Positions 2,050 through 61,379 of a DNA stretch of 64,000 nucleotides are shown in pieces. The stretch is taken from assembly GCA_964016885.1 (NCBI GenBank), contig OZ024741.1:120218001-120282000 (forward strand), in the 5' to 3' direction. This DNA is from Eledone cirrhosa (taxonomy: Eukaryota). Position 1 is the stretch's first letter, and every line of letters begins with the position of its first letter. The notes beneath the pieces were generated by a model. That model saw only the letters and a list, made by a program, of their open reading frames with translations. It was not told where the DNA came from and did no database searches. The position numbers and the translations under genes were made by a program.

Positions 2050-5000
2050 ATGACCTCACTCAGAATAGGCAGCATAAATGCGCGTGGCTTGGGGTCGTCA
2101 TGGAAGCAGGGCCACCTGCTCAACGACCTCAGGTCACTAAACATAGATGTAGTGGCCATCAGCGAGACCAGAATCTCCGAAGCACAGGCTTTCGCACCGA
2201 TTTTCGGCGGCTACGATGTGTACGCATCTCCCAGCCGTCCGGGATCGGGGGGAGGAGTTGCTGTGCTTTTTCGGAGAGGTTTGGATCTTGCCATACGGGC
2301 CATCTTCCTGGACCCAGAAGGTAAGTTGGTGGTGCTGGACGTGACCAGCGGAGACGGGCAAGCTTTCAGGTTAGTGGCCGTCTATGCCCCGACAGGAGCA
2401 GGGCGGCCTGATTTCTTCCGGCGTCTGGAGACCTTTCTTGGAACGTCCCGCTCTTTAGTGTTAGTGGGCGACTGGAACGGGATCTTAGATGCACGCTGGG
2501 ATTGTGTGGGATTAGTGGATAGGGAAGGAGGGTGCAAGTGTCTCACCAACCTGCTCAGACGTTTTGAACTGTCTGACAGGTACCGAATGGATTTCCCGAA
2601 TGTACCAATGTGGACTTGTACAAATCGCATAGGGTCATCCAGATCATATCTAGATAGAGTATTTTGTAGGGAAATAGATAGGTCTAGCATAAGCTGTCCA
2701 CAATTCAAGATAGTCAGCTACACGGACCACAAATTCGTGATCTGTGTGCTTGACTTACATAGGCTTCATAGACGAGGACCCGGCTACTGGAAGTTAAACG
2801 CGTCCTTACCAGCGCGCAAGGCCTACAGAGACTGGATTAGCGAACTAGTTAAGCGGGCGTTGACGGGGGCCATCGTCAACAACAAGTGGTGGTTTGCTCT
2901 GAAAAGAGCAATTAGAATAGAGTCCATTAGGTTTAGTAAGACTTTAGCAATAGAGAAAAATAGAGCAGAGGGAGAACTAGTTAGAAAATTAGATGAGGCG
3001 CTTAGCAAAGGCATCGCGACCGACGTACTTGCGGCGAAATTGGCCCTTGACCAATTCTTCAATGCAAAGCACGAAGGCTGCGTTGTCAGAGCTAGGGTGC
3101 GTGCTCTCAGACACGAGGGGACGAAAGCCGTTCAATGGGCCCGAGTGGCGGAGGCGCGTCGTGGCAACAAAGCCACGATCCGGTCTTTGGTGGACCACGA
3201 CGGGCGCATGCTACTCGATCCCGGGCAAATGTGTGAAGCTTTTCAGCGACACTTCGCTCAACTGTTCGGGGGCAGTGGCGGGCCGGATCGAGGGATGGAC
3301 TTTAGTGTCTACCTCGACGGACTGCCGCGGCTTTCGGCCACTGAGGCGGAGTGTTGCGAAAAGCCGATAACAACCGCTGAAGTACGGGATGCAATGACTA
3401 GTTGCACAAGGGGTAAATCGCCTGGTTTGGATGGTCTGCCCTATGAACTTTACGTACAAATGCCAAACTTGTTCGGAGGCCTCTTGGCGGACGTCTACTG
3501 CAACTGGCAACAGAACGAGAGAATTCCCAGCTCTGTGAGCCGAGGAGCGGTGGCGCTGCTGAGAAAGGATCCGAACAAGGGGGATAACATAGATAATTTT
3601 AGGCCCATAACTCTACTAAACACAGAGTTCAAGATTTTGGCCAAGGTGCTAGCAAAGAGGTTGGCGCTTGTCGTTGGTGGTCTGGTGGGAGAGGCACAGA
3701 CATGCGCCATTCCCGACAGATCCATCCACGACAACCTCCACCTCATGCGATACATCGTAGAGAGGGTAGCTAGGGAACCTGGCACGGGTGGGTCTTTGAT
3801 CAATTTAGATCAGTCGAAAGCCTTCGATAGGGTCGACCATCGTTACCTAGCGGCAGTCCTGAGGGCGGCTGGCTTTGGGCCCGTCTTCAGAGGCTGGATC
3901 GCTGCCATACACAGCGACATCTGCTCTGTAGTGAGAGTGAACGGTCACCTTTCGGAACCGTTCAACATCATGCGCTCGGTCCGCCAAGGATGTCCCCTCT
4001 CGTCCCTATTGTACGTATTGACTCTCGAGCCATTACTGCACAAACTGGAGACGTTGAGGGGGGTCCCGCGCGAACTAGGATGCGGAAGATCCGTGTCAGC
4101 ATATGCGGACGATGTCACCGTAGTGGTGTCGAACGCCAAACACATCGAGGCGATCGGTACTACACTTAGAGAATACGAAGCGGTGACAGGAGCAATGATC
4201 AACCAAGAAAAGTCAGTGGGCCTGCAGCTCGGCACCTGGAGAGGCAGGTCCATGCCGTCCAACAGCGTCGTCGGGCGCTGGACGGACGGACCGGTTAAAT
4301 TGCTAGGGGTCTGGTTCGGTCCAGACCTCCAGACGGACAAAAACTGGGACGAGGTGACGAGCAGGGTGGCTTCTATCACCCAGAAATGGGCCGAGAGGAA
4401 GCTATCCCTGAAAGGTCGAGCGGAGGTGGCGAATGCGTACATCGCATCCGTCATCTACTACCGCCTGACCGTCGTACCTTGTCCTAAGCCCCGCCTGACT
4501 GCGCTGGAGCGTTTGCTCTTTCGCTTCTTGTGGAAGGGACGCGCTCCGATGGTCAGGCGGTCCATCTGCTGTCAACACCCGCTACGTGGAGGGCTGGGAA
4601 TGCCGTGGCTGATGATGCGCAGACACGCGCTCAGGCTACGACATCTCCACCTCTTCCTCGACGGTGATCAGGTGTGGTCGCCGTTTGCTAGACACGTTTT
4701 TCCCCAGCTCGTCTCCTTGACGGAGCTGCAGTCCTGGGTCAAGCGAAGACCGAGAGGGAGCGCTTGGAGACTGGAATGTCTTCAGGCGCTCACAACCCTC
4801 GACCAATCGGGCAATGTGATCGGTGGAAACTCCACCTTGGCGTTCTATAGGGGATTAGTGGAGGGGAAGAGCGACGACGTACTTGGAGAAACTCTGGGCG
4901 TCGACGAAAATCAACTAGCCAATCTCTTCGGAAGGACTTTCGGGCCGGGGCCTATGGACAACTTCCAGAAATCCCTGGCCTGGCAGTGCTACCGAGGAGC

Positions 5001-5469
5001 TTTGCCAGTTCGGGATAAACTCTACAGGCATGGAGGTGCCGTCAGCCGGGCATGTCCGAGATGCGCACAGGGCGACGAAACCGTCCTGCACGCACTCGTC
5101 CAGTGTCCGAGCATTACTGACTTGTGGGTTTATGTCGAACACCTGCTGTCACGTGTAGGACGGATCCAGCTATCAGCTGAGTCCATCGTGAGGATTGCCC
5201 CGCCCCCTTCCTTTAGCCGGGAAGGGCAGGCATTTTTTATCTGTCTGGTGGCCATGGCGAAAGAGATAGTATGGTGGACACGTTTGAAAGGGCTGAAGAC
5301 GAGCACTTACCTCTTCGGTGATGCCCTGATTAACTTTTTCAAATTTCATTTGAAAAGGAAAATCAGGGTAGAGAGGGAAGTGCTCTCTTCCCAGCATTTT
5401 GTTGAAAGATGGGTGAGAGAAGCAAGCATGGCCCGAGTGAATGGGCCTACTCTGAGTATGTGTCTGTAA
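2050..5469 (+). CDS. Tx1 ORF2: AP endonuclease + reverse transcriptase + C-terminal zinc finger, intact 1139 aa
   Basis: APE motifs SINARGL, ISET, GDWN, YLDR, TDH; RT motifs KSPGLDG, FRPITLLN, KAFDRVDH, RQGCPLS, YADD; finger CPRC..ETVLHALVQC. Confidence 0.96.
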   Translation: MTSLRIGSINARGLGSSWKQGHLLNDLRSLNIDVVAISETRISEAQAFAPIFGGYDVYASPSRPGSGGGVAVLFRRGLDLAIRAIFLDPEGKLVVLDVTSGDGQAFRLVAVYAPTGAGRPDFFRRLETFLGTSRSLVLVGDWNGILDARWDCVGLVDREGGCKCLTNLLRRFELSDRYRMDFPNVPMWTCTNRIGSSRSYLDRVFCREIDRSSISCPQFKIVSYTDHKFVICVLDLHRLHRRGPGYWKLNASLPARKAYRDWISELVKRALTGAIVNNKWWFALKRAIRIESIRFSKTLAIEKNRAEGELVRKLDEALSKGIATDVLAAKLALDQFFNAKHEGCVVRARVRALRHEGTKAVQWARVAEARRGNKATIRSLVDHDGRMLLDPGQMCEAFQRHFAQLFGGSGGPDRGMDFSVYLDGLPRLSATEAECCEKPITTAEVRDAMTSCTRGKSPGLDGLPYELYVQMPNLFGGLLADVYCNWQQNERIPSSVSRGAVALLRKDPNKGDNIDNFRPITLLNTEFKILAKVLAKRLALVVGGLVGEAQTCAIPDRSIHDNLHLMRYIVERVAREPGTGGSLINLDQSKAFDRVDHRYLAAVLRAAGFGPVFRGWIAAIHSDICSVVRVNGHLSEPFNIMRSVRQGCPLSSLLYVLTLEPLLHKLETLRGVPRELGCGRSVSAYADDVTVVVSNAKHIEAIGTTLREYEAVTGAMINQEKSVGLQLGTWRGRSMPSNSVVGRWTDGPVKLLGVWFGPDLQTDKNWDEVTSRVASITQKWAERKLSLKGRAEVANAYIASVIYYRLTVVPCPKPRLTALERLLFRFLWKGRAPMVRRSICCQHPLRGGLGMPWLMMRRHALRLRHLHLFLDGDQVWSPFARHVFPQLVSLTELQSWVKRRPRGSAWRLECLQALTTLDQSGNVIGGNSTLAFYRGLVEGKSDDVLGETLGVDENQLANLFGRTFGPGPMDNFQKSLAWQCYRGALPVRDKLYRHGGAVSRACPRCAQGDETVLHALVQCPSITDLWVYVEHLLSRVGRIQLSAESIVRIAPPPSFSREGQAFFICLVAMAKEIVWWTRLKGLKTSTYLFGDALINFFKFHLKRKIRVEREVLSSQHFVERWVREASMARVNGPTLSMCL

Positions 5470-5715
5470 ATTAAAGGTGGAAAACTGGGAGAGGGCACTT
5501 GCCCTGGTGGTCAGGGCCACTGTGGTCTTTTAATGGGCTTTCTCCACAAATGTCCCTCGGAAGTCTCCCCCCTATTGGGGAATTTTTTCTTTGTTATTTT
5601 ATTTCAACCTCCGTTTTTTTTACACGCAGAAATACCCATTTGTACCGTCCTGTATTGTCCTGTACTGTCCTTAATGTCTACTTTATGTAAACCCTTGTGG
5701 TTAATAAAGAAAACA

Positions 5716-5788
5716 TTATTATTATTATTATTATTATTGTTATTAATGTATGTGTGTGTGTATGTATGTGTGTATGTATATATGTATG

Positions 5789-5819
<31 letters not shown>

Positions 5820-5836
5820 TTTTTTCTTTTTTTTTT

Positions 5837-5885
<49 letters not shown>

Positions 5886-5925
5886 TTTTTTATTATTTTT
5901 TTTTTTATTTATTTTTTTTTTTTTA
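5716..5925. repeat. Compound microsatellite (ATT)n/(TG)n/(TA)n/poly-T
   Basis: Read directly from the sequence. Confidence 0.9.
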
Positions 5926-5931
5926 AATTCT

Positions 5932-6040
5932 CGTGAAATGGCCATACTCGATAACAAGGGGGCAGCCATCATGTATGTATGTATGTATGTATGTATGTAT
6001 GTATGTATGTATGTATGTATGTATGTATGTATGTATGTAT
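5932..6040 (+). mobile_element. About 40-bp 3'-terminal remnant of the RTE family with its (ATGT)n tail
   Basis: atggccatactcgataacaagggggcagccatc-atgt matches the RTE 3' end at 43940-43972 (gtggccgtactcgaaaacgagttggcagccacc-atgt). Confidence 0.65.
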
Positions 6041-6506
6041 AACTGTCTTAAGATGACTGACATTTAATAAATGATAAGCACTGACCTGTTATGGTTGACG
6101 TTGATCATGTATAAAAAATAATAAATAAGGTGAATTCGTAATTGTTTGCAATTCTGCGAGTATTTTGGTTTGTAATTTCCTCTCCGCTTTACTTATAATT
6201 TTATATCATCATTAGACAGCTTGGTGTGGTTGTCAGAGCTGGTGTATTAATTTTACCTCCCCCCTCTTAGTATGGTTGTAATTTTCGAATGTTCCGTTAA
6301 CTTTACTTCCCTCCCTCTTAGTATATAGATAGTATATTAGCCAATGAGCAGTAGCATTGCAACATATATTTCCTGCATTCTTTCCTTTTAAGCACACATT
6401 TCCATTTCCCTCCCTCTCTTTATAGGCACACACAAGCTTCAAGTCTTCCTTTAGCAAACGCACACGAACACACACAAATATACAAGCACACAGACATACA
6501 CTTACG

Positions 6507-6552
<46 letters not shown>

Positions 6553-6672
6553 CATGGAATGCAAACATGAGATACACCAGAATATACATTAGATAAGGTC
6601 AAAACCGTGCCCACTACACAACATAAAAATAAGAAACAAAAACCCTAAAAGCACATAAATGAAAATACATTC

Positions 6673-6704
<32 letters not shown>

Positions 6705-20094: not shown

Positions 20095-20450
20095 AACAAA
20101 ATATCGTTATAGGTAATCCAGTTAGAGGTTGTGAATACTTCTTATTATGGATAGTTTTAGCGTACGGCGTTGTTTGACTCAACAAGAGATTTATGTAGAT
20201 GACGAGTTTATAATTTCACTTGTAAGTTTATCTTGGAGTAATAAAATTGAAAAAGTGGAGAATAACATGGTCAACAGTACAAAAAAGTTTCCGAAGATCT
20301 GATCGAGCTAACATCGTATTTAAAATTGAGTGGCACTGCTTCTAGTGTTCAGCAATTTTTAGACGACTTTATCAGTGAAACAATTGTTAGACTGTAAATA
20401 AATCCCCCTTTTTTGTACTGTTGACCATGTTATTCTCCACGTTTTCAATT
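20095..20450. mobile_element. PLE-associated fragment with internal inversion, in (TA)n
   Basis: 20245-20287 is the inverted repeat of 20408-20450. Confidence 0.5.
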
Positions 20451-20518
20451 ATATATATATATATATATAAATGAAATAACAGGAGCCTGGACTGGTGTAA
20501 ATCCTTGAAAGGTTTATT

Positions 20519-20576
20519 ATACTATGATCATTTCAATGACCGGGTTCCATATGAATCCGGTGATATCATCAGGTAT
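20519..20576 (-). ncRNA. Minimal type I hammerhead ribozyme
   Basis: Minus strand: atac CTGATGA tat caccggattc-atat-ggaacccggtc att GAAA tgatca TA gtat; palindromic stem III. Confidence 0.8.
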
Positions 20577-22360
20577 TGGAATATAACAAAGGAATATGTA
20601 AAAAGCCATGGGTCCGAAAAATCAGAAACAGAGGGACGGCTGGCCGACTAGCTTCTCAGCCAGCCGCCGTCAAAGTGTTGGCAACCGAAAAACTACCAAT
20701 GAATATCTGGTGAGGGGGCGAAGGCTTACAATGCGCTACCACCACTCCGTCAAAGAAGAAGGGGAAGAAAGAAAGAAAGGGAGAAAGAGGTGTAGTGTAA
20801 GGGTCAAACTACATTCATGTTAGAAAATGCCGCGAAAAAATGCTACCCAAAGAATCTATAATGTGTGTCTGTATGGTCTAATGTGCGAACCGAAGATTGG
20901 AACGTTAAATTTATGTTGCGAGTTATAGGATGAAATTAAATTAAATTAAAAATATTAGATTGCAAAATGGTAAATTGAAAAATAGAGGTAGCGAGATTTA
21001 TTTATTTAATGAAATTACGGAGAGTCTTATATGAAAAAAAGATTTTTAGATATTAGGATGGGATATAGAGTAAAGATTTCGATTGGGAGTCCCAGCCAGC
21101 ACACCCACCACCATGAGTCAGCCAGTCTCGAGTGGTATCGTCCAGCGAAAGAAATGGAAATTAATTTTTCCGAGTACTCTAGGAACGTAGCTAACTTTGG
21201 CCCCGGGATCGCTAACGGAAACTCCACAATTTCGACAGGCCATCGTCTATACCACGAATACTATTAAATAACACATTAGGGGTTTATTTACGTGTCAGTG
21301 GAGGCATTACACAGCTAATAGTCATGCCCAAACCTGGAGTTTGTACAAGTATAATGTGGCGGCCAAAACAGGCGGCGCGGTGGGACCGGGGCAAAGCAAG
21401 TCGCTCCGAGTAATTTCATTTACCGAAAGAGGAGAAATTTATTTTTCCGAGCACTCAAGGAAGGCTGAACTTACCGAGTGCCCAGCGCGCAGCCGGGAAA
21501 AGTCACCACACAAGTCGAAGGTAACAACCCAGTGAAAAGTGCAAATAGGCCAAAATTATTTTAAAGTCCCAGTTAGTCCGAGTTATAGGTAGTGTGGATC
21601 TTAGGTGGGTAGGGGGCTATGAAAGATGCATAATGACCTGAGTAAGGAATAGTTACAAAACAAATATTAAAACATATGAAAAAATAATATAAAGATAGAA
21701 TACATTGATGAAAATACATTAATAAAATAATAAAAAATAATAAAATATACATTAATGAGATAGAAAAAAATTAATAAAGGTAAATAAGAATCAATATAGA
21801 TCAAGTTGTAGTAAGATAATACAAGTTGTACATATAGAAATAGATAGAGAGGATGGAGGAGATGGAATGGTAACAGGTTGTACCTAGTGTAAAGTTCAGT
21901 GCGAGTCACAAAAAGTCCCTAGGTATAGAGTAGAGAATTCAGTCCATAAAATACATGTTTTAGTATAATACGTAGAGTTTTGTCGTAATCGGAATCATCC
22001 CGACAAGGAAAGTAGTATCAGGTGGCGGTAGATAAGGCGCAGAGCAGCCAAAATGCGAATGGTAAGTAGATCAGTTAATCCCATGCTGGTAATAGCTGTA
22101 CACTGAAGTCAGTGCCGCTGTTCAATATTACATTTTGAAGTGCTCAACATTATAGGAGCATTATTTCTTTAGGTTTGTTGGTTCACCACTGGATAGAACT
22201 GGTCATTCCGTATGGTCAATCCTGGTGTAATATTGTGAGGAGTACTCAACGCACTGCAGTTCATCCATCTTCGTTTGTGTAGTTGGTGGTGCGAATACGG
22301 AGTTAATTATAAATGAAATAACAGGAGGCTGGACTGGTGTAAATCCTTGAAAGGTTTATT

Positions 22361-22415
22361 ATACTATGATCATTTCAATGACCGGGTTCCATATGAATCC
22401 GGTGATATCAGGTAT
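22361..22415 (-). ncRNA. Hammerhead copy with a 3-nt deletion in the CUGAUGA core (probably inactive)
   Basis: Same as 20519-20576, but ctgatgatat is reduced to ctgatat. Confidence 0.65.
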
Positions 22416-22917
22416 TGGAATATAACAAAGGAATATGTAAAAAGCCATGGGTCCGAAAAATCAGAAACAGAGGGGACGGCTGGTCGACTAGCTTCTCAGC
22501 CAGCCGCCGTCAAAGTGTTGGCAACCGAAAAACTACCAATGAATATCTGGTGAGGGGGCGAAGGCTTACAATGCGCTACCACCACTCCGTCAAAGAAGAA
22601 GGGGAAGAAAGAAAGAAAGGGAGAAAGAGGTGTAGTGTAAGGGTCAAACTACATTCATGTTAGAAAATGCCGCGAAAAAATGCTACCCAAAGAATCTATA
22701 ATGTGTGTCTGTATGGTCTAATGTGTGAACCGAAGATTGGAACGTTAAATTTATGTTGCGAGTTATAGGATGAAATTAAATTAAATTAAAAATATTAAAT
22801 TGCAAAATGGTAAATTGAAAAATAGAGGTAGCGAGATTTATTTATTTAATGAAATTACGGAGAGAGTCTTATATGAAAAAAAAAAAAAAAAAAAAGAGAA
22901 GCTAGTCGGCCAGCCGT

Positions 22918-22965
<48 letters not shown>

Positions 22966-29182: not shown

Positions 29183-29386
<204 letters not shown>

Positions 29387-29506
29387 GGAGCTGAGTTTTA
29401 TTGTAGTACAATAAAGCAATGCAGATATCGGATAAGAAGCACTCTATGTTGATTTAAAACTGCACTATCCACAAGTGTTTTTTAACCTTCATATCATGTC
29501 TTCCTG

Positions 29507-29573
29507 TTTTATCTGATGAAAACACAAATATTATTGCATGATGATATTTGTTTTTGAAATGCGCATAATAAAA
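29507..29573 (+). ncRNA. Minimal hammerhead ribozyme in a solo pLTR fragment (29383-29607)
   Basis: ttttat CTGATGA aaacacaaatat..atatttgttttt GAAA tgcgca TA ataaaa. Confidence 0.82.
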
Positions 29574-29603
29574 TACATGGAACTCTTTTAACCATCTTTT
29601 GTT

Positions 29604-29647
<44 letters not shown>

Positions 29648-58662: not shown

Positions 58663-61379
<2,717 letters not shown>

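Follow-up and report, generated by a model that had tools for sequence, protein, structure and literature searches.

The window analysed here, meaning the whole 64-kb stretch of DNA taken from an assembly of 3.0 Gb, contains an insertion of a high-copy, non-coding family of elements that carry a hammerhead motif. This family is likely mobilised in trans by a PLE RT/endonuclease, with target-primed insertion into (TA)n. We infer that its RNA runs on the hammerhead strand, so that element sense is the minus strand, and unit coordinates (q1 to q1845) are numbered on the plus strand. The features that make up the window copy are as follows.

20450 to 20469, no strand: (TA)n target microsatellite of the left flank, read from the sequence, adjoining the 3' end that the element has in the minus-strand (hammerhead) reading
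20466 to 22310, minus strand: full non-coding unit of 1845 nt, from the repeat finder, genome search and locus mapping
20519 to 20576, minus strand: downstream minimal hammerhead motif with its core intact, from sequence, alignment and descriptor
20638 to 20665, minus strand: conserved 7-bp hairpin GGCTGGC / GCCAGCC, from sequence and an alignment of 40 copies
21080 to 21540, minus strand: GC-richer body ('cargo'), 45 to 52% GC, non-coding by the tests run
22162 to 22310, minus strand: 'tail' segment of 149 nt (q1697 to q1845), delimited by the ends of other copies
22308 to 22882, minus strand: upstream partial unit (q1 to q575) forming the pseudo-LTR, 98.3% identical to 20466 to 21040
22361 to 22415, minus strand: upstream copy of the hammerhead, in which 3 nt of CUGAUGA are missing, from sequence and alignment (row L001_3540)
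22876 to 22895, plus strand: run of 20 A, read from the sequence
22896 to 22921, plus strand: inverted fragment of 26 nt (q192 to q167), the reverse complement of 20632 to 20657
22921 to 22964, no strand: (TA)n target microsatellite of the right flank, read from the sequence

Between 20466 and 22921 the window holds 1.31 head-to-tail units. An earlier sequence-only reading had described direct repeats with an 1842-nt period, each with a minus-strand hammerhead and palindromic helix III, inserted within (TA)n, and all of this was borne out. The repeat finder places the repeats at 20466-21040 and 22308-22882, with a period of 1842 nt that becomes 1839 or 1840 nt past small indels, and the two differ by 4 mismatches and 3 gaps over 575 nt. 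The tail is internal in this copy, placed where the upstream partial unit gives way to the full one; other insertions have it as an optional 3' extension, and their outer ends fall at q1697 or q1. The conserved hairpin lies ~60 nt upstream of the hammerhead in the RNA sense, and the GC-richer body contains a short internal repeat (21157-21185 and 21434-21462). The run of 20 A is an expanded form of the A7 that the unit itself carries (21034-21040), and not a poly(A) tail that terminates copies of the family; the variable ends of other copies fall on this side of the element. Directly after it comes the inverted fragment, which covers the hairpin loop and its 3' arm and is atypical in that it stops short of any 3' terminus. 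A 25-bp inverted piece capping the 5' end had been described at this position: the piece is there, its size is 26 nt, and it is 5' only when read on the hammerhead strand.

The hammerhead can be read directly from the window as a type I motif on the minus strand (20576-20519). Helix I is AUAC/GUAU, the core CUGAUGA lies at 20572-20566 and the GAAA at 20534-20531. Helix II spans 9 positions, of which 7 are paired and the others are a U.U and a C.C mismatch, with a loop of 13 nt, and helix III consists of 2 bp inside the palindrome AUGAUCAU at 20531-20524. With A17 at 20523, the cut is predicted between 20523 and 20522, which is 57 nt before the element 3' end at 20466. The conserved core (C3-A9, G12-A14, A15.1-U16.1 and H17) is present together with helices I to III in type I order. 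In the minimal hammerheads of metazoan PLEs, according to the available parts of PMC4209133, helix I is short, helix II is long and leaves its first base unpaired, and helix III is tiny, with a loop that is palindromic; the window motif shares this architecture, its helix I having 4 bp and its helix III 2 bp.

Conservation of the motif can be followed across copies. The core and helix III are kept in 30 of 40 family copies, and an identical 58-mer is found in 19 of the 40. Between the window family and a related family (family 2), the 58-mer is 97.8% identical; in the same comparison, identity is 74% over the 60 nt upstream of it, 90% from it down to the first 3' end and 84% in the tail. As judged from these alignments, the hammerhead is under constraint in the family. 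A hammerhead descriptor, composed post hoc once the motif had been seen, gave 0 matches in 300 first-order Markov sequences of 64 kb. Searching with Rfam gave no hammerhead match at the gathering score, nor at E<=10 over 2.8 kb, nor over 151 nt. Rfam is a weak judge of the minimal class, however, since a cleaner minimal hammerhead used as a control (60043-60105 of the window) also falls below its cut-off, scoring 18.5 bits against 52.

Whether the motif could act alone is a separate matter. Folding predictions give the monomeric hammerhead +0.1 kcal/mol and a rod-like alternative a minimum free energy of -13.9, and any activity of the putative ribozyme, if real, probably needs a dimer or a protein. 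In keeping with the accessible portions of PMC4209133 and PMC11167929, PLE minimal hammerheads alone cleave poorly or require protein. The upstream copy in the window does lack 3 nt of its CUGAUGA core (22415-22361), as had been noticed from the letters, and is predicted to be inactive through this deletion. In the derived dimer geometry each core would cut the site of the other copy, so at most one window site would be cut. The earlier proposal that two cuts would free a monomer of ~1.84 kb is therefore not supported at this locus, where release is unexpected because one ribozyme core is broken.

The family was characterized by searching the genome with different parts of the element. The unit gave 3432 first-look candidates, 40 of which were scored and yielded 104 matches with 83-100% identity on many contigs. 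A search with the body only gave 1530 first-look candidates and one with the 3' module of the related family gave 1595; all of these counts are lower bounds, with 40 candidates scored per search. The unit was then mapped onto the 30 best loci, which are top-scoring long copies, so that proportions among them are biased. On the hammerhead strand, 5' ends lie anywhere from q1283 to beyond one full unit. In contrast, the 3' ends are fixed at q1 (window 20466) or q1697 (window 22162), 149 nt apart, and lie 57 and 206 nt beyond the predicted ribozyme cut. Every copy longer than 57 nt spans the predicted cut site, which implies that the templates are uncut or religated RNA. Tracts of (TA)5 or more occur at 44 of the 56 flanks of 28 other insertions; the background is 4.8% of random 46-nt windows from the 64-kb stretch.

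Partial tandems and inverted arms are both found in the family. Tandem redundancy of 76-575 nt is seen at L001, L004, L006, L008, L013 and L030, with lengths of 76, 101, 120, 220, 255 and 575 nt (76-255 nt outside the window). The longest array seen, L087, is a 2.2-mer in which two full units of 1903 nt are 100% identical to each other and about 86% like the window, followed by a third partial unit. Most copies at the 30 biased loci are dispersed singles, truncated or two-armed, and two whole direct hammerhead regions are found at L001, L006, L008 and L013 among these loci as well as at L087. Two mirror-image arms with their 3' ends outward make up 14 of the 28 other insertions. At 12 of these 14 loci, one arm terminates at q1697 and its partner is tailless; in the case of L009 the tailed arm extends to q1558, and at L014 both arms are without the tail. 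A tail is thus present on exactly one arm in 13 of the 14. Family 2 follows the same pattern, with 12 of 12 adjacent inverted arms lacking the tail that the other arm has, a count that leaves out one tailed inverted copy 750 nt away in L086. An apparent 76-nt extension past the tail in family 2 proved to be only flanking (TA)n. Of 9 loci whose two arms were compared with each other, 7 show 97-99% identity, with lower values at L014 (94%) and L015 (83%). For instance, the arms of L029 are 99.0% alike over 1247 nt, yet 85-89% like the window; being far closer to each other than to the window, they point to an origin in one event.

These features can be set beside what is described for PLEs. Their insertions show 5' truncation, partial tandems that form pseudo-LTRs of variable length, an adjoining inverted 5'-truncated copy, a tail that is often at one end only, and a bias to microsatellites, according to the sections of PMC8557442 available to us. 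Purified PLE protein in vitro cuts and extends both DNA strands at AT-rich sites, uses two internal RT start sites shortly downstream of the hammerhead that define the tail, and takes uncut RNA as its main template (PMC11167929). Since the family shows PLE hallmarks and fits the behaviour of the purified protein, it is read here as a non-autonomous PLE copied in trans. The protein-free character suspected from the window was upheld, in an element whose variable 5' ends, fixed 3' ends, arms and tandems form a PLE insertion anatomy.

A mechanism can be proposed on this basis, in which nicks made by the PLE enzyme on the two strands of a (TA)n tract would be followed by cDNA synthesis from either of two internal RNA sites. 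Copying would proceed toward the RNA 5' end, sometimes overrunning into a second unit, and such an overrun could produce the 1.3-copy tandem (pseudo-LTR) of the window. The window copy itself, which has no terminal tail, may have begun at the upstream site and run for 1.31 units before ending by a slip at the A-run and a 26-nt template switch. A monomer able to circularise had been suggested; the tandem can do without an RNA circle, as variable partial tandems are the ordinary PLE pseudo-LTR (PMC8557442). Several points count against the PLE reading: the tail, at 149 nt, is four to five times the 30-40 bp described (PMC8557442, as far as its available text goes), the 26-nt inverted piece of the window is unlike a normal second arm, Rfam fails to recognise the hammerhead, whose monomer fold is predicted to be unstable, and the PLE loci sampled for a partner yielded no autonomous element with the same 3' module.

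The genome is rich in PLE enzymes. The GIY-YIG model gave 10597 first-look candidates in it, and the 150 that were scored all exceed the Pfam cut-off, the longest open frames among them reaching 1096 aa. One sampled autonomous type, L044, encodes 938 aa with a C-terminal GIY-YIG and also ends in (TA)n. The 3' module was joined to an ORF in 0 of 46 sampled PLE-bearing loci (26 + 20, out of more than 10000 GIY-YIG candidates). Comparison of the unit with these loci by blastn brought up nothing beyond low-complexity AT-rich matches and, at L048 and L101, unrelated insertions of the module that are truncated, and tblastn of 21 sampled PLE ORFs against the unit gave matches only at E 0.07-10, none of them significant. 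Two candidate links were rejected. A match of the tail to the last residues of the GIY-YIG domain was, at the DNA level, no better than shuffles. Likewise, a 12-mer that occurs both at the q1 end and in the untranslated regions of several PLEs lacks a common context and is not a PLE 3' end.

Coding potential can be assessed copy by copy, which is how ORFs were sought. Stop-to-stop ORFs reach at most 87 aa in the window unit, and no more than 155 aa among 34 copies. No Pfam match was found below E 0.1 for 12 of the 27 listed window ORFs, nor below E 0.05 for the 5 copy ORFs scanned, and a tRNA scan found no tRNA in the unit. The earlier view that the element has no RT or GIY-YIG ORF agrees with these results, and the possibility it had raised against itself, that the family consensus would encode an RT, finds no counterpart in frames of this length. 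Open frames up to 155 aa do recur within the GC-richer body in some copies, with variability by codon position of 0.026, 0.034 and 0.041, a weak trend. This recurrent frame has no relative among proteins of 85-272 aa, and many frameshifting indels separate the copies within it. A coding role for the GC-rich body was rejected on these grounds: no Pfam match, no protein relative and frameshifting indels.

The alternative that survives best is that the family is a true retrozyme, in which two hammerheads would cut a monomer of 1.85-1.9 kb out of a tandem transcript, to be ligated into a circle and copied by rolling-circle reverse transcription. This reading overlaps the preferred one, as the RT would still be PLE-type and the circle is the addition; we consider it unlikely, although several observations fit it. 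Animal retrozymes have been proposed as PLE derivatives (preprint 10.64898/2026.07.22.740005, in its available portion). The cut site is spanned by all copies, as expected of religated templates, and unit-length copies with 5' and 3' ends a few nt apart occur at L012 and L016. The two perfectly identical units of L087, about 86% like the window and followed by a partial third, would also fit a circle, but their identity could equally result from recent DNA duplication or from assembly. Other evidence points away from the retrozyme. Instead of arrays, most copies are single, truncated or two-armed; few loci have the two whole direct hammerhead regions needed, even with L087 added to the four of the 30 biased loci; and one of the two window cores is broken. 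The motif is of the weakly active minimal type (PMC4209133, in the parts seen), with a monomer fold predicted to be unstable. Furthermore, at L003, L005 and L007 a start at q1 goes together with an end near q1700, which a circle copied for one lap does not predict. Three sequence runs considered as a source of RNA evidence proved to be short contigs of a single sample with the behaviour of genomic DNA, and were set aside for questions of expression, strand and copy number.

A specific version of this idea would have as template a hammerhead RNA circle of 1.85-1.9 kb, with the two halves of a PLE dimer each priming one strand from start sites 149 nt apart. We hold this to be distinctly unlikely. 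If true, it would account for the one-tail rule as well as for the tandem of 2.2 perfectly matching units, and in size the circle would exceed every described animal retrozyme several-fold.

The window copy, taken alone, might suggest a non-autonomous LTR element, either TRIM/LARD-like or of the kind of the plant LTR retrozymes, in which LTRs of 575 bp enclose an interior of 1.27 kb. The two 575-bp direct repeats, 98.3% identical around an ORF-free interior, are what such an element would leave, but repeat length is unfixed in the family (76, 101, 120, 220, 255 and 575 nt) and most copies are without any repeat. Arms in mirror image, flanks of (TA)n and 5' truncation of variable extent do not belong to LTR elements, and constant LTR boundaries with short target duplications are absent from the 28 insertions, which makes this reading very improbable. 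Just as improbable is a SINE-like element on the plus strand, copied by a LINE and tailed with poly(A) at 22876-22895. The 20 A at the 3' side of the plus strand suggest it at first sight; however, the run expands an internal A7 (21034-21040), and the 28 other insertions end on that side at varied unit positions, 0 of them at the A-run. On the plus strand, moreover, the family would show fixed 5' and variable 3' ends, the reverse of LINE-type copying. Finally, the repeat might be unique DNA that was duplicated locally and resembles a hammerhead by chance. This single-copy outcome, which had been named as fatal to the first interpretation and which only the tandem itself recommends, has next to no probability and was refuted by the genome search and the mapping of other loci, given 3432 first-look candidates on many contigs and a motif conserved across two families.

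The non-autonomous PLE reading can also be judged against known systems. The closest likeness is to the canonical EN+ PLEs (Penelope/Poseidon, Neptune), which share partial tandems, an inverted 5'-truncated arm and an optional one-sided 3' tail (PMC4209133; PMC8557442; PMC11167929, as covered by the text available from them). In the same partial sources, AT-rich or microsatellite targets and a minimal type I hammerhead shortly upstream of the 3' ends are further points in common, and templates that include the uncut ribozyme site are another (PMC11167929). Unlike these elements, the window family has no RT/EN ORF, a tail of 149 nt where 30-40 bp is described, and no sequence link to any sampled autonomous element.

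Metazoan non-LTR retrozymes are similar in being non-coding and hammerhead-bearing, with a proposed dependence on PLEs and with tandem copies, as at L087 and in the window. They are described, in the portions of PMC7229834 and preprint 10.64898/2026.07.22.740005 that could be consulted, as units of about 170-400 bp that mostly form arrays, carry efficient canonical hammerheads and have been shown to give circular RNAs; consensus lengths are given as 51-972 bp in the preprint and about 300 bp in PMC7229834. The window family differs in its unit of 1845-1903 nt, its mostly dispersed single or two-armed copies and its minimal hammerhead. Short tandem arrays with one hammerhead per unit, a retrozyme trait, are not its usual form. 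Against the same published lengths, the 1.85-kb unit is indeed unusually large, as first supposed.

Two more distant parallels can be drawn. Non-autonomous Chlamys PLEs, for example MRC1 of Chlamydomonas, are ORF-less and show pseudo-LTRs and head-to-tail multicopy insertions. Unlike the window family, they have the 3' ends of known autonomous families and no canonical hammerhead (PMC8557442, in the passage available), and both their PLE clade and their host kingdom are different ones. Plant LTR retrozymes are likewise non-autonomous, with a hammerhead in each flanking repeat, a non-coding interior and a comparable overall size. They differ from the window family in having type III hammerheads, true LTRs, PBS/PPT and 4-bp duplications, in being GC-rich and in being mobilised by Ty3-type elements (PMC4918200, from the part to hand).

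Non-autonomous PLE derivatives and PLE-linked hammerheads are already described, and the element is no surprise in a PLE-rich genome. In octopus, the repeat annotation lists many recently active Penelope families, and the accessible part of that report was not found to mention non-autonomous elements (PMC13282606). The value of the family lies in the natural record it provides of a poorly understood insertion reaction. The 149-nt spacing makes the two 3' ends easy to distinguish, two-armed insertions nearly always use one of each, and the arms are datable pairs; together these properties allow the two-start-site model to be tested on genomic events in the thousands. A question that arises from them, beyond the in vitro work, is why the two DNA strands get different start sites.

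Some minor regularities of the family can be added. A preferred 5' end lies near q1700, with 6 of about 20 long copies ending within 15 nt of it. The 5' ends of short arms cluster at q138-159, just 3' of the conserved hairpin. A ~100-nt part of the GC-richer body is common to family 2. An internal inverted fragment comparable to that of the window copy is present at L030, where it covers q585-753.

The 3' end of the window's 1.85-kb hammerhead unit is also found in a second non-coding family of the same genome (loci L057-L086; 1595 first-look candidates), and because the two families share little beyond the hammerhead and the tail, this 3' module looks like a common mobilisation cassette. Common to both are only the last ~300 nt, comprising the hammerhead and tail at ~84% identity, the first ~50 nt and a ~100-nt body motif. 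The body of the second family is built of internal repeats of ~500 nt, and no ORF longer than 116 aa was found in six of the seven copies checked; a 172-aa frame lies in the upstream 1.8 kb of one member, L082, and may be inside or outside the element.

Head-to-tail arrangement of the unit is seen at L087 (G000:C2:56952500-56962400, 2648-6678), where 2.2 units are flanked by (TA)n. Its two 1903-nt units are 100% identical to each other and carry two hammerhead cores, both intact and 1903 nt apart. Another locus of this genome, L044 (C1:145867800-145877600), terminates in (TA)n, and the CUGAUGA-type core is absent from its 1.5-kb 3' untranslated region.

Short arms, that is, mirror-image copies within one insertion, often end at unit positions q138-159 (L017, L023, L009, L026 and L048). 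A 7-bp hairpin (window 20638-20665) that is conserved among the copies lies 14-35 nt to the 5' side of these stops, and the window's own 26-nt inverted fragment spans its loop and 3' arm. The RT may pause at these stops, or the RNA may be processed there. Further features of the window are listed below.

20241-20454: fold-back, arms of 47 nt, 96% complementary, 120 nt apart
25885, minus strand: relaxed hammerhead descriptor match, 'helix III' plain (AT)n
29385-29607, plus strand: ~220-nt fragment with a hammerhead motif, embedded in a long (TA)n tract
60043-60105, plus strand: clean minimal hammerhead, helix I of 7 bp, palindromic helix III ACTAGT
61644, plus strand: relaxed hammerhead descriptor match, 'helix III' plain (AT)n

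The fragment at 29385-29607 probably stems from a different PLE-type family, as an insertion that lacks its 5' part. Its motif, with CUGAUGA at 29513, combines an 8-bp helix I, a long helix II and a palindromic helix III ATGCGCAT, and recurs at L048:533. The minimal hammerhead at 60043-60105 scores 18.5 bits against Rfam HH9 (E 0.029), and an identical motif occurs three times at L053 (8268, 8779 and 9262), at a spacing of ~500 nt that resembles an array of small retrozymes of the classical kind. The two relaxed matches may be microsatellite artefacts or truncated motifs. Immediately upstream of the element at 20466-22921, and adjoining the same (TA)n, the fold-back appears MITE-like.
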